From sequence record MT446390.1: a stretch of DNA of 64,000 nt. One strand, given 5' to 3'. Made by a program: the position numbers and the translations under genes. The stretch is from Escherichia phage TH12. Each line of letters starts with the position of its first letter. Positions within the stretch are counted from its first letter, which is position 1. The notes beneath the pieces were generated by a model. The model was not told where the DNA came from, ran no database searches, and saw only the letters and a program-made list of their open reading frames with translations. Shown here in pieces: positions 6,438-14,902 of this stretch.

Positions 6438-6770
6438 ATGTCTGAAGTACAACTCCCAATTCGTGCTGTTGGTGAATATGTCATTCTGGTTTCTGAACCC
6501 GCTCAAGCAGGTGATGAAGAAGTTACCGAATCAGGACTTGTGATTGGTAAACGTATTCAAGGTGAAGTTCCTGAACTATGTGTAGTTCATTCTGTAGGTC
6601 CTGATGTTCCTAAAGGTTTTGTTGAAGTCGGTGATTTGACTCCACTACCAGTTGGACAAATTCGAAATGTTCCACATCCATTTGTGGCTTTGGGACTTAA
6701 ACAACCTAAAGAAATTAAACAGAAATTCGTAACATGCCACTATAAAGCTATTCCGTGTCTTTATAAGTGA
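6438..6770 (+). CDS. 31: co-chaperonin for GroEL (GroES analogue)
   Basis: Near-identical over full length to T4 gp31 as recalled (MSEV...[23 protein letters not shown]...). Confidence 0.95.
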
Positions 6771-6778
6771 TATAAATA
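6771..6778 (+). promoter_or_regulatory. T4 late promoter TATAAATA
   Basis: Exact TATAAATA immediately after gene 31 stop, followed by hairpin GAAGAG-AACA-CTCTTC (6786-6801). Confidence 0.45.
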
Positions 6779-6894
6779 ACTATATGAAGAGAACACTCTT
6801 CTAAGCGGTAGCCTACAACTGAGAGACTTGTCGAAAGAAGGTGAAATTCAGACGAACGTGGCTACTAAATATTATCTCGAATTGAGAATTTAAA

Positions 6895-7143
6895 ATGATT
6901 AAACAATTACAACACGCTCTTGAACTGCAACGCAACGCATGGAATAACGGTCACGAAAACTACGGCGCGTCAATTGATGTTGAAGCCGAAGCACTGGAAA
7001 TCCTGCGTTATTTCAAACACCTGAATCCTGCTCAGGCTACTCTGGCTTCTGAACTGGAAGCTAAAGATGAATTGAAATATGCTAAGCCTCTGGCTTCTGC
7101 AGCACGCAAAGCAGTTCGTCATTTTGTTATTACTTTGAAATAA
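6895..7143 (+). CDS. rIII: possible rIII lysis-inhibition accessory protein (82 aa)
   Basis: Size and position directly downstream of gene 31 as in T4; sequence identity not verified. Confidence 0.5.
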   Translation: MIKQLQHALELQRNAWNNGHENYGASIDVEAEALEILRYFKHLNPAQATLASELEAKDELKYAKPLASAARKAVRHFVITLK

Positions 7144-7306
7144 TTGCTATCATGCGTCAGCAAAAGGTTAGCTGTGTAAGTCATGGTAGGTATGATGACG
7201 GGTTTATGGTTATCCTGTCGTTAAATACCCAAAACCTATGTTCCCCTTGAGGGCTTGCGCAGGCAATGTCAATAAGTCCTGCATTTTCATTTAAAGAGAA
7301 TTTATA

Positions 7307-7486
7307 ATGGCAAAACAAGCTAAAGCAAAGAAAGCAGTTGAAAAGAAAGTTGATGGTACCTCTAAACGCGCTGGATACAAGCGTGGGTCGAACTCTCGTA
7401 TTAATCAAACAGTTGAGAAGATCATGCGCAGAGCACGTGCAGTTCTTCGAGATGATGCTTCTCGTTTTGGAAAGGTTGTTGCATAA
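7307..7486 (+). CDS. small basic hypothetical protein (59 aa; not in supplied ORF list)
   Basis: ATG at 7307 to TAA at 7484-7486, Lys/Arg-rich, immediately followed by a strong terminator hairpin. Confidence 0.45.
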   Translation: MAKQAKAKKAVEKKVDGTSKRAGYKRGSNSRINQTVEKIMRRARAVLRDDASRFGKVVA

Positions 7487-7491
7487 TTTTA

Positions 7492-7515
7492 GGGAGACTT
7501 CGGTCTCCCTTTTGT
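7492..7515 (+). terminator. rho-independent terminator, GGGAGAC-UUCG-GUCUCCC hairpin plus U tract
   Basis: Perfect 7 bp GC-rich stem with UUCG tetraloop followed by TTTTGTG. Confidence 0.7.
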
Positions 7516-7546
7516 GCGTTTAGGGCAGAAAAAGTTTAAAAAAGAT

Positions 7547-7575
7547 GTTTACTCTCCTGTAGGATGTGTTACTAT
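7547..7575 (+). promoter_or_regulatory. T4-type early promoter
   Basis: GTTTAC 7547-7552, TACTAT 7570-7575, then GGAGAATAAAATG. Confidence 0.55.
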
Positions 7576-7616
7576 AGACTTGTACCACCTAATCAATAAA
7601 ACAACCGGAGAATAAA

Positions 7617-7985
7617 ATGAAAATCAATCTGAACTCATACATCAAATGTAAAGACCACGATGGTTATAAAGCTATCGAAATTAAAGAATTCCAGTGGATG
7701 TTATACAAAGAGCAATTTGAGTTCGTAGGTTGTATGACCCCTGAAGGTCCTTCTGATGATTTCTCTTGGAAAATTGTGTTAGCAAACTTTTTCACAGGTG
7801 ACACGTACGAATTAAAAACTATTATTACCGGTAAAATTCGTTCAGAAACATATGTTGACGAAGAAACTGGTTACTCTGAAGATGTTACATGGTATCAAAA
7901 TGGACGCATTACAGCAGATAACCTGATCGAAAAAATGAAAGCCAAAGGTGTTTTAAATTTAGACAATTGGATTAAAGTTGCATAA
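7617..7985 (+). CDS. hypothetical protein (122 aa)
   Basis: Promoter-leader-ORF cassette with GGAGAATAAAATG. Confidence 0.6.
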   Translation: MKINLNSYIKCKDHDGYKAIEIKEFQWMLYKEQFEFVGCMTPEGPSDDFSWKIVLANFFTGDTYELKTIITGKIRSETYVDEETGYSEDVTWYQNGRITADNLIEKMKAKGVLNLDNWIKVA

Positions 7986-7989
7986 AACA

Positions 7990-8018
7990 GTTTACTTTGG
8001 TACAGGTTATGTTATTAT
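7990..8018 (+). promoter_or_regulatory. T4-type early promoter
   Basis: GTTTAC 7990-7995, TATTAT 8013-8018; 10 bp dyad TGGTACAGGT/ACCTGTACCA flanks the -10. Confidence 0.55.
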
Positions 8019-8059
8019 AGACCTGTACCAATAAACAACTTAAACATCTGGAGAATAAA

Positions 8060-8425
8060 ATGAACTACATCAACTTCGAACGCAAATATGTTTCTAACGG
8101 TATTGCTGGTTCTTCTGAAGTTATTTGCTTATGGAAACACGAAAACGGTACAGTTTGTGAAATCGAACAGTGCATGACTCCTAATTACGTTTATATGCGA
8201 TTTGAAAATGGTATCACGGTTTCAATCACGATGGAAGGTTCAAATTTTAAAATTGCATTAGATGATGATTTCCGTCAGCGTGATTTAGGTACTCATCCTT
8301 GCTGGAATGGTGTTAATCGTAAACTTCTGGTTAAAACTTGGATTCGTCATATCCTGAGTAACCGAGCTAAACCTGAACATCTCGAAGCAATCTTTGATGT
8401 AGTTCTTAACGAATTTGATATCTAA
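8060..8425 (+). CDS. hypothetical protein (121 aa)
   Basis: Promoter-leader-ORF cassette with GGAGAATAAAATG. Confidence 0.6.
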   Translation: MNYINFERKYVSNGIAGSSEVICLWKHENGTVCEIEQCMTPNYVYMRFENGITVSITMEGSNFKIALDDDFRQRDLGTHPCWNGVNRKLLVKTWIRHILSNRAKPEHLEAIFDVVLNEFDI

Positions 8426-8432
8426 ATTAATT

Positions 8433-8448
8433 GGGAGCCGAAGCTCCC
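8433..8448 (+). other. intercistronic stem-loop GGGAGC-CGAA-GCTCCC
   Basis: Perfect 6 bp stem with tetraloop between two plus-strand ORFs, no U tract. Confidence 0.5.
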
Positions 8449-8461
8449 TATTGAGGAAATT

Positions 8462-9076
8462 ATGTTTAAAGTTAATACTTTTTATAAAATGAATTTTAAA
8501 AACGGGGATATTACTCCACGCCTTAAAAACATGTTCTCATATGACCTTATCGAGCCTTTTGAAGTTTTAGAAGTTACTGATGCTGGCTCGGTTTGTGAAA
8601 TTAGAACTTCTGAAGGTAAAATTTATCAGGCAGGTATTGGTAAATTCAGTAATTGTTTTACTTTAATATTCTCGACTGATTTAGATGAGCATTTTATTGA
8701 ATGTCCTAACCATAAGGTCTACGAAGTTCCATGGAAAGAAACTAAGAAAAATGGACCGCATGAATACACGAAGGTTGAAACTCCTCACGGCGATATGTGG
8801 CGGCATAACTCTCCTTTCGGAAGTAAAGGAACATTTGCTCAACTGCCTAAACCTTATGACGATGAAAAATACATCGTCGCCTTTTTATCTGAACAGGGTA
8901 CTCAAGACCGTGGATGTCAACGAAGTGGTTTACTAAGTGAACTTGAAGCTCATAACCAAGCACGTGAATTCGTTGAGAAAAATCCTGGCTCTGAAGCTCT
9001 AGTCATGAAAGCAATTACTCAATATATCACTGCTCAACCTGTTGTTCATCCGGTAGAAATTAATTTCATTAAGTAG
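8462..9076 (+). CDS. hypothetical protein (204 aa)
   Basis: ORF with GAGGAAATTATG start. Confidence 0.6.
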   Translation: MFKVNTFYKMNFKNGDITPRLKNMFSYDLIEPFEVLEVTDAGSVCEIRTSEGKIYQAGIGKFSNCFTLIFSTDLDEHFIECPNHKVYEVPWKETKKNGPHEYTKVETPHGDMWRHNSPFGSKGTFAQLPKPYDDEKYIVAFLSEQGTQDRGCQRSGLLSELEAHNQAREFVEKNPGSEALVMKAITQYITAQPVVHPVEINFIK

Positions 9077-9106
9077 TTTACATCCAAGGACGGATTAGAG
9101 TATAAT
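9076..9106 (+). promoter_or_regulatory. T4-type early promoter
   Basis: GTTTAC 9076-9081, TATAAT 9101-9106. Confidence 0.5.
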
Positions 9107-9130
9107 GATTTCTTTAGTAAGTGGAAAAAT

Positions 9131-9328
9131 ATGAAATTTTTAATAGCACAAACAGTCCAATTAAAAGGTGTTGGAATTCCTGGGGTGATTTTTAAAGTTC
9201 TCCCTGAATTTAAAACCGCCGCTGGAATTATCAATGAAGCGTATGCTGTTCAATGGGTTGATTGGACTTCTGACATACGTATGGGTAAAGAGTTATCTCC
9301 TATTAAAGGGTTGAAACATGTTGAATAA
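9131..9328 (+). CDS. hypothetical protein (65 aa)
   Basis: ORF downstream of early promoter. Confidence 0.5.
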   Translation: MKFLIAQTVQLKGVGIPGVIFKVLPEFKTAAGIINEAYAVQWVDWTSDIRMGKELSPIKGLKHVE

Positions 9329-9530
9329 ATTAATCCAGAAATTGTTAGGTACAGAAATGGTTGAAGTTACGTATCGTGTGACTGATGTAAGCCCATGGGC
9401 CCGAAAAGTTGAACCATATACTAAAACAATTAAAATGCTGAAATATGACGGTGGATTATCTATCAAAGACCGTCTACCGGCTTATGGTCATTGGGCTGAT
9501 GTTGAAATTATAAGTGTTAAAGATGTCTGA
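9318..9530 (+). CDS. hypothetical protein (70 aa)
   Basis: Overlapping start/stop with neighbours. Confidence 0.5.
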   Translation: MLNKLIQKLLGTEMVEVTYRVTDVSPWARKVEPYTKTIKMLKYDGGLSIKDRLPAYGHWADVEIISVKDV

Positions 9531-9981
9531 GTTAGAGATTAGAAGCAATTTTAGATGGCCGTCATGTGCATTAAGTAATTTTGCCCAGTGGCCTTTCGTT
9601 ATGGATGGTATTCAATTCGGAGGTCTTGAAGGATTTCTCCAAGGATGTAAGGTGAAAAATGTTGAACAACAAAGACGTATATTTGGGCTGTCAGGACTGG
9701 CCGCACAGCAAGCTGGAAGGTCTTATGCAAGAGCTCAGGACCATGGGACTCTCTTCTGGTTAGGAGTTCCATTTTCAAGATACTCTGAAGCATGGAAAGA
9801 ATTATATACAAATGCATATTTTGAAGCAGCGATCCAAAACAAGGGGTTTCGCGATGCCTTACAAGCCTCTAAAGGAAAAATTTTGAAGCACAGCATGGCC
9901 AGCCACCTAACAAAAGATGATACAATATTAACTGAAGCTGAATTTATTGATGTGTTAAACCTATTAAGAGACTCTTTATGA
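9523..9981 (+). CDS. NADAR-domain (YbiA-like) protein, candidate ADP-ribose processing hydrolase
   Basis: LSNFAQWPFVMDG matches recalled E. coli YbiA FSNFAAWPIKVDG; ATG at 9523 overlaps the previous stop (listed start 9514 is GTG). Confidence 0.6.
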   Translation: MSELEIRSNFRWPSCALSNFAQWPFVMDGIQFGGLEGFLQGCKVKNVEQQRRIFGLSGLAAQQAGRSYARAQDHGTLFWLGVPFSRYSEAWKELYTNAYFEAAIQNKGFRDALQASKGKILKHSMASHLTKDDTILTEAEFIDVLNLLRDSL

Positions 9982-10802
9982 AGCCTACTATTTTGACTGA
10001 TATTGATGGTGTATGTTTAAGCTGGCAATCTGGACTTCCTTATTTTGCCCAAAAATATAATCTTCCATTAGAACATATTTTAAAAATGATTCAGGACGAA
10101 AAATTTATTTCTCCTGGTAAACTATTCAATACCGATGATAACCTCGGTAAACAATTAATAGAAAAATATAATCGCTCTGATTTTATTCGTTACTTAGCGC
10201 CTTATTCGGATGCTCTTCGAGTTATCAATAAACTAAAAGAAGACTATAATTTTGTAGCCGTGACGGCGCTAGGTGATTCAATTGATGCTCGATTGAATAG
10301 ACAATTTAATTTGAATGCTTTGTTCCCAGGCGCTTTCTCTGAAGTAATGATGTGTGGTCATGATTCTTCAAAGGAACAATTATTCGAACTAGCTAAAACA
10401 AAATACAACGTGATTTGTTACGTTGACGATTTAGCTCATCACTGTGACCATGCGGCAGAAATTCTTAATGTACCGATTTATTGGTTGGCTCGTGGTGAAC
10501 GTGATGATATTCCTCGCACTGCACAACGTGTACACACATGGGATGATATTGAATCTCGTTTGGTTCTGCCTAAGAATAATTCAGATTCAGATCGTGAAGA
10601 CCTTTTAAAACGATTGGCGGATTTGCTTAAAGAATCTGGTGCAACAAGTCCAGGTGCATGGCCTAATCAAATTGGTGGCCCCTCGACAACACGTACTCCA
10701 TATACCTGGCGAACCCCAGGACCAACTGATATGCAGCCGTGGTGGACGATTCAAAACTTTCCTTTAGATTCGTCCAAATGGACTTGGTCTATAAATTGTT
10801 AA
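9978..10802 (+). CDS. HAD-superfamily phosphatase/nucleotidase-like protein (274 aa)
   Basis: N-terminal HAD motif I ILTDIDGV; start overlaps previous stop. Confidence 0.55.
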   Translation: MKPTILTDIDGVCLSWQSGLPYFAQKYNLPLEHILKMIQDEKFISPGKLFNTDDNLGKQLIEKYNRSDFIRYLAPYSDALRVINKLKEDYNFVAVTALGDSIDARLNRQFNLNALFPGAFSEVMMCGHDSSKEQLFELAKTKYNVICYVDDLAHHCDHAAEILNVPIYWLARGERDDIPRTAQRVHTWDDIESRLVLPKNNSDSDREDLLKRLADLLKESGATSPGAWPNQIGGPSTTRTPYTWRTPGPTDMQPWWTIQNFPLDSSKWTWSINC

Positions 10803-10811
10803 GGGCTAATT

Positions 10812-11081
10812 ATGTTTGTAGTTCATGATATTACAGATGGCAAAAACACCACACGTGACTACGGTCATGTTAACATGTTCTTTCGAGACTGGCCGGTGTT
10901 TCGTTCAGTAAAAGACGCAGAAATATTTAAAGAGTGTGTTGAACAAGGGTTCATCTACATTTCAGAATATTATGTTGAAGGACTCGGTAAATGGATTACC
11001 ACTTATCAGAAAACGCTGAAATCGCTTCTAGATGAAGTGGCTTATAATAGAACCGTAACCAAAATCGAGGACATCAAATGA
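10812..11081 (+). CDS. hypothetical protein (89 aa)
   Basis: ORF coupled to ligase start. Confidence 0.5.
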   Translation: MFVVHDITDGKNTTRDYGHVNMFFRDWPVFRSVKDAEIFKECVEQGFIYISEYYVEGLGKWITTYQKTLKSLLDEVAYNRTVTKIEDIK

Positions 11082-12571
11082 TTTTAGATATTTTAAACCA
11101 AATAGCTGCGATCGGTTCTACTAAAACAAAACAAGAAATCCTTAAGAAAAATAAGGACAACAAATTACTTGAACGTGTGTATCGTTTAACATATGCACGT
11201 GGTATCCAGTATTATATTAAGAAATGGCCAGGACCAGGTGAAAGGTCTCAAGCGTATGGTCTTCTTGAATTAGATGATATGTTGGATTTTATTGAGTTCA
11301 CATTAGCCACTCGTAAACTCACTGGTAATGCTGCAATTAAAGAGCTCATGGGTTATATCGCTGACGGTAAACCTGATGATGTAGAAGTCCTTCGTCGTGT
11401 AATGATGCGAGACCTTGAAGTAGGTGCTTCAGTGTCTATCGCGAATAAGGTGTGGCCTGGACTTATTCAATTGCAGCCACAGATGTTAGCATCTGCATAT
11501 GATGAGAAATTGATTACTAAAAATATTAAATGGCCTGCATTTGCCCAATTAAAGGCAGATGGTGCTCGTTGTTTCGCTGAAGTTCGCGATGATGGCGTTC
11601 AATTCTTTTCTCGTGCCGGTAACGAATACCATGGTCTTACTCTATTAGCAGATGAACTAATGGAAATGACTAAAGAAGCTCGTGAAAGACACCCTAATGG
11701 GGTTTTAATCGACGGTGAATTAGTTTATCATTCATTTGATATTAAAAAGGCTGTGAGCTCAGGAAATGACCTGTCGTTCTTATTTGGCGATAATGAAGAA
11801 TCCGAAGAAGTACAAGTTGCAGACCGTAGCACTTCAAATGGTTTAGCAAATAAATCTCTTCAAGGGACTATTTCTCCTAAAGAAGCGGAAGGTATGGTTC
11901 TTCAAGCCTGGGACTATGTTCCTTTAGATGAAGTCTACTCTGATGGCAAAATTAAAGGTCAGAAATACGATGTTCGTTTTGCTGCTCTTGAAAATATGGC
12001 TGAAGGCTTTAAGCGAATTGAGCCAATTGAAAATCAGTTAGTTCGTAATCTTGACGAAGCTAAAGTGGTTTATAAAAAATATGTTGACCAAGGTCTTGAA
12101 GGTATTATCCTTAAAAACCGTGATTCATATTGGGAAAACAAACGCTCTAAGAACCTAATTAAATTTAAAGAAGTTATTGATATCGCTTTAGAAGTTGTAG
12201 GATACTACGAACACTCTAAAGACCCTAACAAATTAGGTGGTGTCGAACTCGTATCACGTTGTCGTCGTATTACAACCGATTGTGGTTCAGGGTTTAAAGA
12301 CACAACTCATAAAACAGTTGATGGTGTAAAGGTTCTTATTCCTTTAGATGAGCGTCATGATTTAGACCGTGAACGATTAATGGCTGAAGCTCGTGAAGGT
12401 AAATTGATTGGACGTATTGCTGATTGCGAATGTAATGGTTGGGTTCATTCTAAAGGACGTGAAGGCACTGTAGGTATTTTCCTTCCAATTATTAAAGGGT
12501 TCCGTTTTGATAAAACAGAAGCGGATTCATTTGAAGACGTATTTGGACCGTGGTCCCAGACAGGTTTATAA
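11078..12571 (+). CDS. 30: ATP-dependent DNA ligase
   Basis: Adenylation motif LKADGAR; near full-length resemblance to T4 DNA ligase. Confidence 0.95.
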   Translation: MILDILNQIAAIGSTKTKQEILKKNKDNKLLERVYRLTYARGIQYYIKKWPGPGERSQAYGLLELDDMLDFIEFTLATRKLTGNAAIKELMGYIADGKPDDVEVLRRVMMRDLEVGASVSIANKVWPGLIQLQPQMLASAYDEKLITKNIKWPAFAQLKADGARCFAEVRDDGVQFFSRAGNEYHGLTLLADELMEMTKEARERHPNGVLIDGELVYHSFDIKKAVSSGNDLSFLFGDNEESEEVQVADRSTSNGLANKSLQGTISPKEAEGMVLQAWDYVPLDEVYSDGKIKGQKYDVRFAALENMAEGFKRIEPIENQLVRNLDEAKVVYKKYVDQGLEGIILKNRDSYWENKRSKNLIKFKEVIDIALEVVGYYEHSKDPNKLGGVELVSRCRRITTDCGSGFKDTTHKTVDGVKVLIPLDERHDLDRERLMAEAREGKLIGRIADCECNGWVHSKGREGTVGIFLPIIKGFRFDKTEADSFEDVFGPWSQTGL

Positions 12572-12759
12572 TGAAAGCTTATTTAGAAACAGTTATTGTA
12601 GCTAAGAAGGATGGTGGAGATGTTTCCACCTCTTGTTCCCAAATTGTATTAGATTTTCCTAATAACGATTCCTATCATATTTTTATGGATAATTTTGATA
12701 AGTACGAAAAAGGCCCTAATTTTGAAGTTTATCGTACTTTGCTTCCGATTGTGGATTAA
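12571..12759 (+). CDS. hypothetical protein (62 aa)
   Basis: ATG overlaps ligase stop (TAATG); the listed ORF start at 12550 is a GTG extension. Confidence 0.45.
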   Translation: MKAYLETVIVAKKDGGDVSTSCSQIVLDFPNNDSYHIFMDNFDKYEKGPNFEVYRTLLPIVD

Positions 12760-12780
12760 GAGCCTTCGGGCTCTTTTTGG
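12760..12780 (+). terminator. rho-independent terminator AGAGCC-UUCG-GGCUCU plus UUUUU
   Basis: Perfect 6 bp stem, UUCG loop, T5 tract. Confidence 0.7.
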
Positions 12781-12814
12781 CATAAATATAAATTATTACT
12801 AAAAGGAAAACACT

Positions 12815-14902
12815 ATGTCTGAACAATTAAATGAAGTGTTTGAATCTGAAGGCAGTCTTCCTGTCGTCAATTTGAACCCTAAAGCTAAAGTTCCACAAGT
12901 CTGGAAAATTGGTGATATCGATACAAACATCGTAGTTCGTTTATTCTCTTACCTTTCCGAAGGCGACGCTGTAAAACAAGTTAAACTTGGCGACAAATAC
13001 GCTCATGTTGTTATTATGAGTCTGTCTGAAAAGGGTAATCTCGCTGAATTGAAAAATGGCCTTGGTCCTGCTCCTATTGATGCAATCAACACCATTTTCA
13101 ATACAGTGTATGAACAGGTTAAAGCTCTTCGTATGGATGCAGTTCTGTTCCGATTCCCTACCAAGAAATTGAAAGGACGTGGACAACAACTTCAAACTCT
13201 TCTTGCTCGTCTAGTTTCTACTAAAACCGGTGGTCGTTTTAAAGTATTGTCTGCAATGTATCAATTCACAGGTAAACACACCTATGTGATGATGGTTCGT
13301 AAAAATGCCAACATTGAAGATATTAAAGGCATCCCTAACATTAACACAGAGTTGTACACGAAAGTAGATTCTGATGTTGGCGAAGTTTATGTGAGTAAAA
13401 AGACCGGCGAAAAAGTCACCAAAGAAACGGCTATCGCTGGTTCTATTGCTGCTGTAGAAGAAAAACGTAAAGATAAGCCTGTTATTGCTCGTACTAAAAT
13501 TTCTCGTCGTGCTATTGCAGCAAGTCAATCTTTAGAAGCTGACCGCCAAGAAGGTGAGTTATTCCAGAAATACGAAAATTCTGCTAAAGAAGTTAGTGGC
13601 CCGGCTACAGCTGAATTACTTCCTGAAGCATATGAAATCGTACTAGCCCAAGCATCGTCTACAGCAAAAGGCACTTTAGTTGCTGATATCGAAAATAAGA
13701 TTTATAATCGTATTGATGAATCATTTAAATTTGCTGATGAAGTTTCTTATGGTAGCGTTATTAAGCCGACTTTAGAAAAGTTTGCTAAGAAAATTAAAAC
13801 TGAAAAAACAACATCTGTTAAAGCATTAGCTGCTTTTGTTGAAGCTGCAAACGAAATTGCAGACTCTATTAGAGACGAATGGTTTGAAGATTTTAGACGA
13901 GATAATTTCCAACTGGCTGACGACGTTTTAGCTGAAGTATCTGAAAAAACTTGGAAACAACGTAAATCGGCGTTCTTGTCTAATGTGATGTATACTTATG
14001 CACGAGAATCGGCTAGAGGCACCTTTAATATAACAATGAATCGGGACCCTAAACAATACTCTGTTGCTGAAAAACGAGCTATTCGTGAATATGCCTCTTC
14101 TGCGTATACCGATATCAATAATATGTTGTTAGGTCGTTATAAACCGGATTTTTATGATGTTGCAGATGAAGATGAAGTTAAACGCGCTATTGATGGTCTT
14201 GATTCGGCGTTTTTAAATGGAGACCGTTTACCTGAAGGACTAACGTTATATAGAGCTCAGTCTATCAGAATGCCTATTTATGAAGCAATGGTTAAAAATA
14301 AGGTATTCTACTTCAGAAACTATGTTTCCACTTCACTAGCTCCTATTATTTTTGGCGGGTTTAAAGAGAACGTTGCCCTTGGACTTGCTCCTGAAGAAGT
14401 TCGTAAAGAGCTTAACATTGACAATAATGACGAAGGTGTTACTATTTCTCCTAGTCAAGTAAGAACAGCTATGCACGCACCAGAACAAATCCGTGTTAAC
14501 GTTGGATGGGCTATTGATGGCGCCCATAAAGTTAACGTGATTTATCCAGGACAGTTGAGTAATCACCCTAATGAGCAAGAAATTATTTTGCCTAGAGGCA
14601 TTCTCTTGCAGATAAATAAAATTACAGATGCGTCATCTGACACTGGTGCAGGTTTAGAATCCAACCTTAAATTTATTCAAGCTGAAGTCATGTCCTCAGA
14701 CCAGTTGGATGAAGCGGTCATTTACGATGGTGATGTTCTCATGGAAACAGGCGAGGTGGTTGCTATGACGGGTGAAATCGAATCAGATGAGCCGGTATCA
14801 TTCTCCTCATTTGTAGAAAAAACTAGTGCTCCTAAAGGATTGAAACTGTTAGCATCTTTAATGGATTTGGAATCGGTTCCGTTTAAATTTGTTCAAGGAT
14901 AG
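12815..14902 (+). CDS. alt: Alt ADP-ribosyltransferase (virion-packaged, modifies host RNA polymerase)
   Basis: Collinear with T4 Alt; C-terminal R-S-E ART signature (YRAQS, STS in YVSTSLAP, EQE in NEQEIILPRG). Confidence 0.9.
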   Translation: MSEQLNEVFESEGSLPVVNLNPKAKVPQVWKIGDIDTNIVVRLFSYLSEGDAVKQVKLGDKYAHVVIMSLSEKGNLAELKNGLGPAPIDAINTIFNTVYEQVKALRMDAVLFRFPTKKLKGRGQQLQTLLARLVSTKTGGRFKVLSAMYQFTGKHTYVMMVRKNANIEDIKGIPNINTELYTKVDSDVGEVYVSKKTGEKVTKETAIAGSIAAVEEKRKDKPVIARTKISRRAIAASQSLEADRQEGELFQKYENSAKEVSGPATAELLPEAYEIVLAQASSTAKGTLVADIENKIYNRIDESFKFADEVSYGSVIKPTLEKFAKKIKTEKTTSVKALAAFVEAANEIADSIRDEWFEDFRRDNFQLADDVLAEVSEKTWKQRKSAFLSNVMYTYARESARGTFNITMNRDPKQYSVAEKRAIREYASSAYTDINNMLLGRYKPDFYDVADEDEVKRAIDGLDSAFLNGDRLPEGLTLYRAQSIRMPIYEAMVKNKVFYFRNYVSTSLAPIIFGGFKENVALGLAPEEVRKELNIDNNDEGVTISPSQVRTAMHAPEQIRVNVGWAIDGAHKVNVIYPGQLSNHPNEQEIILPRGILLQINKITDASSDTGAGLESNLKFIQAEVMSSDQLDEAVIYDGDVLMETGEVVAMTGEIESDEPVSFSSFVEKTSAPKGLKLLASLMDLESVPFKFVQG

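Follow-up and report, generated by a model that had tools for sequence, protein, structure and literature searches.

Phage T4 needs its gene 30.3 product, AdfN, to resist DarTG1; the protein is a glycohydrolase acting on guanine-ADP-ribose in DNA (Johannesman 2025, PMC11825919; Toxins 2024, PMC11125620). When adfN is deleted, T4 and T2 lose their resistance to DarTG1 and form no plaques; complementation bears this out, and RB69 is rescued by ectopic adfN (PMC11825919). Purified T4 AdfN cleaves ADP-ribose from DNA (PMC11825919; also its preprint), and in vitro T4 gp30.3 hydrolyses guanosine-ADP-ribose, not thymidine-ADP-ribose (PMC11125620). The E36A and K43A mutations each abolish T4 AdfN function (bioRxiv 10.1101/2024.07.11.602962, preprint of PMC11825919). 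In the phage subgroup, a His in the last β-strand replaces the Glu of the YbiA family or the Asp of the BC4488/DarT1-linked family (PMC11125620, PMC11825919). In uninfected cells T4 AdfN fails to detoxify DarT1, and a further T-even factor may be needed (PMC11825919). Resistance to DarTG1 is seen in those relatives of RB69 whose AdfN is intact.

In the published HIDEN-SEQ transposon screen of T4 on DarTG1 (Data S6), only two genes, 30.3 and 30.4, were significant. Insertions in 30.3, a gene that is non-essential without the defence, were lost (log2FC −7.25, padj 0), and insertions in 30.4 were depleted (log2FC −1.79, padj 0.014). Insertions in 30.2 (71 sites; log2FC −0.12, p 0.61) and in alt (log2FC −0.01) were neutral.

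We analysed a 64,000-nucleotide stretch of Escherichia phage TH12 (the window; MT446390.1), whose source is a Mosigvirus, an RB69-like T-even phage. The open reading frame at 9523-9981 is, with very little doubt, an intact Mosigvirus adfN (gene 30.3), predicted to reverse guanine ADP-ribosylation by DarT1 and so to defeat DarTG1. The sequence-only reading had proposed this frame as a candidate anti-DarT counter-defence gene, a role already demonstrated for the 97%-identical T4 AdfN (PMC11825919, PMC11125620). The identity and role of AdfN are thus known from the T4 orthologue, and the locus adds no new biology.

The adfN gene and its surroundings

The gene order in the window is rIII-30.9-30.8-30.7-...-30.5-30.4-30.3-30.2-30.1-30-alt.1-alt. 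The features around adfN are as follows.

9077-9106, + strand: sigma-70-like promoter candidate, TTTACA-18-TATAAT, 11/12 matches
9131-9328, + strand: gene 30.5, 65 aa; 64% identity to T4 gp30.5; phrog_1690
9318-9530, + strand: gene 30.4, 70 aa; 72% identity to RB69 gp30.4, 44% to T4 gp30.4; phrog_2042
9523-9981, + strand: gene 30.3 (adfN), 152 aa; NADAR superfamily, phage gp30.3 subgroup; intact; predicted DNA ADP-ribosylglycohydrolase
9978-10802, + strand: gene 30.2, 274 aa; HAD-superfamily phosphatase-like; 97% identity to RB69 gp30.2, 70% to T4 gp30.2
10812-11081, + strand: gene 30.1 (DUF3045); PF11243, E 1.1e-26; 97% identity to RB69 gp30.1
11078-12571, + strand: gene 30, ATP-dependent DNA ligase; PF01068, E 2.1e-26; 99% identity to RB69 gp30
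12815-14902, + strand: alt, ADP-ribosyltransferase; PF03496, E 6e-28; 41% identity to T4 Alt

The adfN frame runs from ATG 9523 to TGA 9981 (152 aa). The open-reading-frame listing extends it upstream to a GTG at 9514; we adopted ATG 9523 because it is the annotated start in T4 and because with it the catalytic residues are numbered E36 and K43, as published. This ATG sits 8 nt within gene 30.4 (context ...ATGTCTGA), and the stop codon (TGA, 9979-9981) overlaps the ATG of gene 30.2 (9978-9980) in an ATGA junction. Both overlaps had been noted from the sequence, as had the position of Alt about 3 kb downstream, and all three observations held, with a measured distance to alt of 2.8 kb (12815-14902, PF03496). 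Overlapping starts and stops are usual across this early-gene string, occurring at 30.5/30.4, 30.4/30.3, 30.3/30.2 and 30.1/30.

Among the promoter-like sites found in a promoter/terminator scan of 6500-13000, the site at 9077-9106 scored highest; gene 30.5 is the first gene after it. This candidate promoter could drive 30.5-30.4-adfN-30.2-30.1-ligase, but it constitutes weak evidence because the number of promoter-like sites in the region (25) was not above the expectation from shuffled sequence (19.1 ± 5.0).

Family, fold and catalytic residues of AdfN

The product of adfN matched the Pfam family PF08010 (Phage_30_3) at E 2.6e-69, scoring 231.8 bits (gathering cut-off 36) and covering model positions 1-138 of 138; at this E-value, the identification is not due to chance. 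The motif and catalytic positions are listed below.

9571-9609, + strand: N-terminal NADAR core motif LSNFAQWPFVMDG, codons for residues 17-29
9628-9630, + strand: Glu36 (GAA), catalytic; invariant in 54 homologues
9649-9651, + strand: Lys43 (AAG), catalytic; conserved at 90% or more in 54 homologues
9889-9891, + strand: His123 (CAC), in the last β-strand (residues 120-123 in the model); invariant in 54 homologues

The NADAR-type motif on which the sequence-only reading was founded is present at residues 17-29, and in this part of the alignment of 54 homologues A16, L17, S18, N19, F20 and F25 are invariant, with D28 and G29 nearly so. The YbiA counterpart given in that reading, FSNFAAWPIKVDG, is correct: it aligns with LSNFAQWPFVMDG in the HMMER alignment to YbiA (PDB 2b3w). 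The adfN product carries a catalytic Glu and Lys in its N-terminal half (E36 and K43) and a charged catalytic residue, H123, in its last strand.

Assignment to the wider NADAR family was less direct. An hmmscan of the adfN product against Pfam returned only PF08010 and no match to NADAR PF08719 at E ≤ 1; an NCBIfam search and a phmmer search of PDB sequences also gave no matches. PF08719 was, however, matched by 7 of 53 gp30.3-family homologues (best E 1.5e-7), and a gp30.3-family profile built from 54 homologues reached YbiA 2b3w (E 0.004), with a match spanning SNF...DG...E...Q..K. Thus, the proposed HMM check failed as a direct PF08719 match and succeeded at the profile level and transitively. 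The AF2 model of the adfN product, from an alignment built without the T4 sequence, had a pLDDT of 93, and its top three Foldseek matches were the YbiA/NADAR structures 2b3w, 8bau and 8bat, the outcome that the structural check proposed earlier had anticipated. Fold, catalytic residues and transitive PF08719 matches agree with the earlier claim of a NADAR-family enzyme, and membership of the adfN product in NADAR holds at the level of family and predicted fold, with support that is transitive and structural.

From the window itself we establish the family and fold of AdfN, its catalytic residues, the integrity of the gene and its synteny. By analogy with T4 AdfN, we infer that the enzymatic activity and counter-defence role extend to the TH12 phage. 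During infection, host DarT1 would ADP-ribosylate guanines of the phage DNA and block its replication. AdfN would be produced from the early 30.x gene string. As a small glycohydrolase made of one NADAR domain with the YbiA fold, it would cleave the guanine-ADP-ribose bond by means of Glu36, Lys43 and the subgroup-specific His123. Release of ADP-ribose would restore replicable DNA, and the phage would be expected to plaque on DarTG1 hosts.

Gene 30.2 and alternative roles for AdfN

Gene 30.2 opens with MKPTILTDIDGV, the HAD motif I that had been reported for the 274-aa frame downstream of adfN. D8, D10, K132, D150 and D151 show no variation across 43 homologues of gp30.2, and T96 is kept in 90% or more, so that the four HAD catalytic motifs (DxD, S/T, K and DD) are complete. 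In this protein a core of ~195 aa bearing a helical C1 cap is followed by a helix and then by a disordered, hypervariable Trp/Pro-rich tail; AF2 pLDDT values were >90 over residues 1-190 and <55 beyond 225. Foldseek gave 108 PDB matches at E ≤ 1e-3, and each of the best 50 of these 108 was a hydrolase of the HAD fold, with 5'(3')-deoxyribonucleotidases among them. Sequence searches were less sensitive: gp30.2 scored under threshold with curated HAD models (15.5 bits vs 23.8 for PF13419 HAD_2; 12.7 vs 125.4 for TIGR01428), and a gp30.2-family profile found only noise among PDB sequences (best E 0.18; 5'(3')-deoxyribonucleotidase at 0.92). A literature search returned no reported function for gp30.2. 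With C1-capped HAD phosphatases (cdN 2jao/2i7d, 3bwv and YfnB 3i76), gp30.2 has in common a Rossmannoid core with an inserted helical cap, and it keeps DxD, T, K and DD as they do, a signature of the phosphatase type rather than the dehalogenase type. Identity to these proteins is 10-18%, and gp30.2 adds the hypervariable disordered C-terminal tail.

The sequence-only reading had joined adfN and gene 30.2 into a two-gene unit for ADP-ribose/nucleotide processing. If this unit were obligate, gp30.2 would remove phosphate from the released ADP-ribose, break it down, or potentiate AdfN. The complete HAD catalytic set of gp30.2 is consistent with such a role, as is retention of the ATGA overlap in 14 of 14 full-length close-Tevenvirinae loci. 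For full activity T4 AdfN also seems to depend on a T-even factor, and 30.2 is present in RB69, where ectopic AdfN works. Wider sampling, however, separates the two genes. Only 20 of 80 related viral loci have gp30.2 at 6 kb or less from gp30.3, and immediate adjacency is confined to close Tevenvirinae. In distant T4-like phages gp30.2 lies directly upstream of ligase and gp30.3 is elsewhere, and in the record of one Klebsiella phage the pair is split, with one gene at 27 kb and the other at 135 kb. Moreover, the 71 insertion sites in T4 30.2 were neutral on DarTG1, purified AdfN is active alone in vitro, and the overlaps are generic in this gene string. The two-gene claim is not supported by these observations: an obligate unit is highly improbable, and a non-redundant role of gp30.2 in DarTG1 resistance is largely refuted. 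The conserved genomic partner of gp30.2 is DNA ligase, not AdfN. By its conserved residues and modelled fold, gp30.2 is a HAD phosphatase-like protein with a complete catalytic set; it is independent of AdfN and stands outside the AdfN mechanism. This prunes the hypothesis that the adjacent HAD phosphatase is the partner of AdfN and leaves gp30.2 as a widely conserved, ligase-linked predicted HAD enzyme, a real but modest piece of phage dark matter.

When same-strand ORFs within 2.5 kb of gp30.3 were clustered, no family occurred in more than 20 of the 80 loci. Of the genes translationally coupled to adfN, gp30.4 (9318-9530) is left as a candidate for the T-even factor that AdfN may need outside T-even infection, although we consider this unlikely. 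A jackhmmer search for gp30.4 among upstream ORFs found it in 13 close relatives only; it is confined to close Tevenvirinae, as is the T-even requirement. Apart from 30.3 itself, 30.4 alone among non-essential T4 genes showed significant depletion on DarTG1, and it overlaps the start of adfN. The simpler and probable explanation for this depletion is that insertions in 30.4 affect adfN expression by polarity.

Two further roles would place AdfN outside host defence. It might edit the protein or RNA ADP-ribosylation made by the phage transferases Alt, ModA and ModB, since both AdfN and Alt deal with ADP-ribose and alt lies 2.8 kb downstream. This role is extremely improbable: all NADARs tested, the T4 protein included, hydrolysed guanosine-ADP-ribose and none hydrolysed thymidine-ADP-ribose (PMC11125620), the loss-of-function phenotype of T4 adfN is specific to DarTG1, the gene is dispensable when the defence is absent, and in distant T4-like phages the gp30.3 homologues lie away from alt. 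A functional link to Alt is likewise not supported, as T4 alt insertions are neutral on DarTG1, and the proximity of alt to adfN is just conserved T4 gene order, that is, genomic context only. E. coli YbiA ranks first among solved structures in the sequence-profile search and belongs to the two best fold matches, which would fit a housekeeping N-glycosidase of YbiA type with riboflavin-pathway intermediates as substrates. The third catalytic position is His, however, rather than the Glu of the YbiA family, the phage clade groups closest to DarT1-linked NADARs, and for T4 both the removal of ADP-ribose from DNA and the phenotype on DarTG1 are experimentally established, making a housekeeping function vanishingly improbable. 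Removal of DarT1-inflicted ADP-ribose from phage DNA thus remains the preferred role for TH12 AdfN.

Comparison with T4, RB69 and other NADAR proteins

The window protein and T4 AdfN (gp30.3) are of equal length (152 aa) and identical at 147 of 152 residues (97%), with E36, K43, H123 and the C-terminal helix common to both. T4 adfN is likewise placed between 30.4 and 30.2, with overlaps as in the window, although the genomic background is Mosigvirus in the window and Tequatrovirus for T4. The five substitutions (window to T4) are H74R, E89P, I120V, M124I and H127G. Window M124 adjoins the catalytic H123; RB69 gp30.3 has M124 as in the window, and Gly at 127 as in T4 rather than the H127 of the window. 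The internal out-of-frame ORF 30.3' of T4 retains only 34 codons in the window, and we rejected this truncated frame as a conserved gene. Among the 1,510 matching phage records, gene 30.3 is labelled "hypothetical protein" in almost all of those listed.

RB69 provides a natural loss-of-function allele in the same genus-level background, with flanking genes 72-100% identical to those of the window (30.4 72%, 30.2 97%, ligase 99%). In RB69 gp30.3, an extra T at nt 411 removes the last 15 residues, and the phage is DarTG1-sensitive. DNA alignment showed that the +T at nt 411 is absent from the full-length window gene, and we therefore rejected a pseudogene like that of RB69. The model of the window AdfN retains the C-terminal helix (residues 138-151) that the inactive RB69 allele lacks. 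Over the 2.1-kb query 9000-11100, Escherichia phage 55 has 99.3% identity to the window. With its intact adfN allele, Mosigvirus TH12 should resist DarTG1, unlike RB69.

More distant relatives differ at the third catalytic position. E. coli YbiA (2b3w) and the Phytophthora NADAR (8bau), both of PF08719, have 19-21% identity to the window AdfN, in which the YbiA-family Glu is replaced by His. Compared to DarG1, the DarT1-associated NADAR antitoxin (Geobacter lovleyi, PDB 8bat, BC4488 family), the window protein has no N-terminal extension, has His rather than Asp at the last-strand catalytic position, and is encoded by an orphan gene with no toxin alongside. T4 AdfN is unable to replace DarG1 in uninfected cells (PMC11825919). 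Set beside this toxin-linked antitoxin, AdfN is a clear case of a lytic phage with an orphan antitoxin-like enzyme that repairs defence-inflicted ADP-ribosylation of its DNA.

Identity of the gp30.3 ORF

Genes are packed tightly along the + strand between 6.9 and 14.9 kb of the window, and each was assigned by BLASTP against T4 and RB69.

Genes of the 6.9-14.9 kb string (window coordinates, strand, assignment by BLASTP against T4 and RB69)
6895-7143, +, rIII
7307-7486, +, 30.9
7617-7985, +, 30.8
8060-8425, +, 30.7
8462-9076, +, 204-aa ORF without T4 or RB69 counterpart
9131-9328, +, 30.5
9318-9530, +, 30.4
9523-9981, +, 30.3
9978-10802, +, 30.2
10812-11081, +, 30.1
11078-12571, +, 30 (DNA ligase)
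12571-12759, +, alt.1
12815-14902, +, alt

The flanking proteins mostly share 95-100% identity with those of RB69, which places the origin of the window in an RB69-like T-even phage; Escherichia phage 55 (Mosigvirus) shares 99.3% DNA identity with positions 9000-11100. The 204-aa ORF at 8462-9076 (+) belongs to phrog_17531 (E 1.6e-144), a family without assigned function, and has no Pfam match. As a mosaic insertion separating 30.7 from 30.5, it occupies the slot where T4 and RB69 have an unrelated 30.6 and has no counterpart in the 30.x region of either phage; right after it comes the region's best sigma-70-like site (9077-9106). Gene 30.5 is present in the window phage and T4 and missing in RB69.

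The sequence-only reading had described ORF 9523-9981 as a NADAR-like protein carrying LSNFAQWPFVMDG, its start overlapping the preceding stop, its own stop overlapping a 274-aa ORF, and Alt lying downstream. All of these details were borne out: the upstream overlap spans 8 nt, the downstream junction is an ATGA leading into a product that begins MKPTILTDIDGV, and Alt is 2.8 kb away. The YbiA motif given for comparison, FSNFAAWPIKVDG, was right as well. Pfam PF08010 (Phage_30_3) covers the 152-aa ORF end to end (E 2.6e-69), and 147/152 residues are identical in T4 gp30.3. The ORF directly matched neither the NADAR model PF08719 nor PDB sequences, so its assignment to NADAR had to be put to the test, and three independent tests bore it out. 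Among 53 diverse gp30.3 homologues from metagenomes (35-87% identity), seven matched PF08719 directly (best E 1.5e-7), and the family profile retrieved E. coli YbiA (2b3w; E 0.004) across the motif region. E36 is invariant and K43 at least 90% conserved in the family alignment; H123, also invariant, lies in the last strand of the predicted model. Other NADARs have a catalytic Glu or Asp at this position, and its replacement by His defines the phage gp30.3 subgroup (PMC11125620, PMC11825919).

Linkage of adfN to gp30.2, Alt and gp30.4

A two-gene unit of 30.3 (renamed adfN; Johannesman et al., Nat Commun 2025, PMC11825919) and the adjacent HAD gene, as had been proposed, is unsupported, because the linkage is poorly kept and gp30.2 is dispensable for T4 on hosts carrying the DarTG1 defence. 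Start/stop overlaps occur all through this early-gene string and are generic. Of 80 viral contigs with a gp30.3 relative, just 20 carry gp30.2 within 6 kb of it, and direct adjacency is confined to close Tevenvirinae. More distant T4-like phages have gp30.2 directly upstream of ligase and gp30.3 elsewhere amid unrelated neighbours; the record of Klebsiella phage K65_evo1 has one of the pair at 27 kb and the other at 135 kb. By this arrangement, it is ligase with which the HAD gene is consistently partnered, which hints at a role for gp30.2 in nucleotide or DNA-end metabolism. In contigs L016, L017, L036, L037, L040 and L081, gp30.2 abuts ligase upstream or overlaps it, and gp30.3 is set apart by 20 nt (L016) to ~1.2 kb.

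In the HIDEN-SEQ transposon screen of T4 (Data S6; bioRxiv 10.1101/2025.11.20.689424), exactly two genes were significant on DarTG1, 30.3 (log2FC -7.25, padj 0) and 30.4 (log2FC -1.79, padj 0.014). Values near zero for 30.2 (71 insertion sites; log2FC -0.12, p 0.61) and alt (log2FC -0.01, p 0.97) show that neither is needed for AdfN function in T4. The neutrality of alt insertions leaves the suggested link between Alt and the NADAR ORF without support, and the proximity of Alt to adfN reflects conserved T4 gene order.

In uninfected cells T4 AdfN failed to detoxify DarT1, and its rescue of T5 and Bas25 was only weak. DNA modification was excluded as the cause of this limited activity because T4-GT7 still depends on AdfN, and the authors therefore proposed that a further T-even factor aids AdfN (PMC11825919). 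The screen data argue against gp30.2 as this factor, unless it is redundant. Gene 30.4, the sole further T4 gene significantly depleted beside adfN, encodes a protein confined to the same close Tevenvirinae, and its depletion goes unmentioned in the HIDEN-SEQ main text. This depletion is most simply a polar effect on adfN, whose start overlaps the 30.4 stop; that gp30.4 is a genuine AdfN cofactor seems very improbable.

Predicted fold of gp30.2

The window ORF at 9978-10802 shares 70% identity with T4 gp30.2 and 97% with RB69 gp30.2. Sequence models barely detect a HAD domain in gp30.2 (HAD_2, 15.5 bits, under threshold). An alignment of 43 homologues nevertheless shows the complete phosphatase-type HAD motif set, with no variation at D8, D10, K132, D150 or D151 and at least 90% conservation of T96. 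The structural model (pLDDT >90 for residues 1-190) gave 108 PDB matches at E <= 1e-3, the best 50 of which are all HAD-fold hydrolases, including 5'(3')-deoxyribonucleotidases. The earlier label of HAD-family phosphatase is thus a fair description of the predicted protein, for which our literature search found no paper. The C-terminal part (10575-10799) comprises a helix (residues 203-221) and then a tail of ~50 disordered, Trp/Pro-rich residues (pLDDT <55) that are hypervariable between phages. Among T4-like phages the tail varies in both sequence and length, with whole proteins of 176-347 aa, and the window allele is of RB69 type, with alignment to T4 impossible past ~residue 240.

Conservation and comparison with T4 and RB69

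AdfN is 97% identical between the window and T4, well above its neighbours (30.4, 44%; 30.5, 64%; 30.2, 70%; 30.1, 58%; ligase, 64%; Alt, 41%), which points to strong constraint or recent gene exchange. T4 annotates an out-of-frame ORF, 30.3' (75 aa), inside 30.3. In the window this frame (9659-9763, +) runs for 34 codons to a TAG at 9761-9763, and it is apparently likewise stopped early in RB69, judging by aligned DNA; it is open (~74 aa) in 13 related loci. The early stop is evidence against 30.3' as a conserved gene. By tblastn, adfN is present in 1,510 phage records; the 40 listed call it 'hypothetical protein', save two with 'gp30.3' or 'GP30.3 family protein', and its NADAR function has yet to reach public annotations.

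Earlier bioinformatic work, as described in a paper citing it, had noted T4 gene 30.3 as a phage NADAR. T4 gp30.3 hydrolyses guanosine-linked but not thymidine-linked ADP-ribose, as does every NADAR tested (Toxins 2024, PMC11125620). That study gives its construct as 'E. coli T4 phage NADAR (gp30.3; residues 1-208)' (Methods 4.2), and T4 gp30.3 has 152 aa (NC_000866); the construct may include tags or derive from another T4-like phage. Some metagenomic gp30.3 homologues are 201 aa long. Purified AdfN strips ADP-ribose from DNA, the T4 E36A and K43A variants are dead, and T4 and T2 lacking adfN fail to plaque on DarTG1 (PMC11825919). Independently, HIDEN-SEQ confirmed that T4 can do without 30.3 on plain K-12, and that insertions in the gene are lost on DarTG1 (bioRxiv 10.1101/2025.11.20.689424). 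The proposal of a NADAR acting in anti-DarT counter-defence is therefore correct, and it is not new, having been established experimentally for this 97%-identical orthologue.

The unique DarTG1 sensitivity of RB69 was traced to a single inserted T at nt 411 of 30.3 that costs gp30.3 its last 15 residues, and RB69 is fully rescued by ectopic adfN expression (PMC11825919). In a DNA alignment of the window, RB69 and T4, this insertion occurs in RB69 only, leaving the window allele intact; the window phage, an RB69 relative with an intact adfN, is predicted to resist DarTG1.
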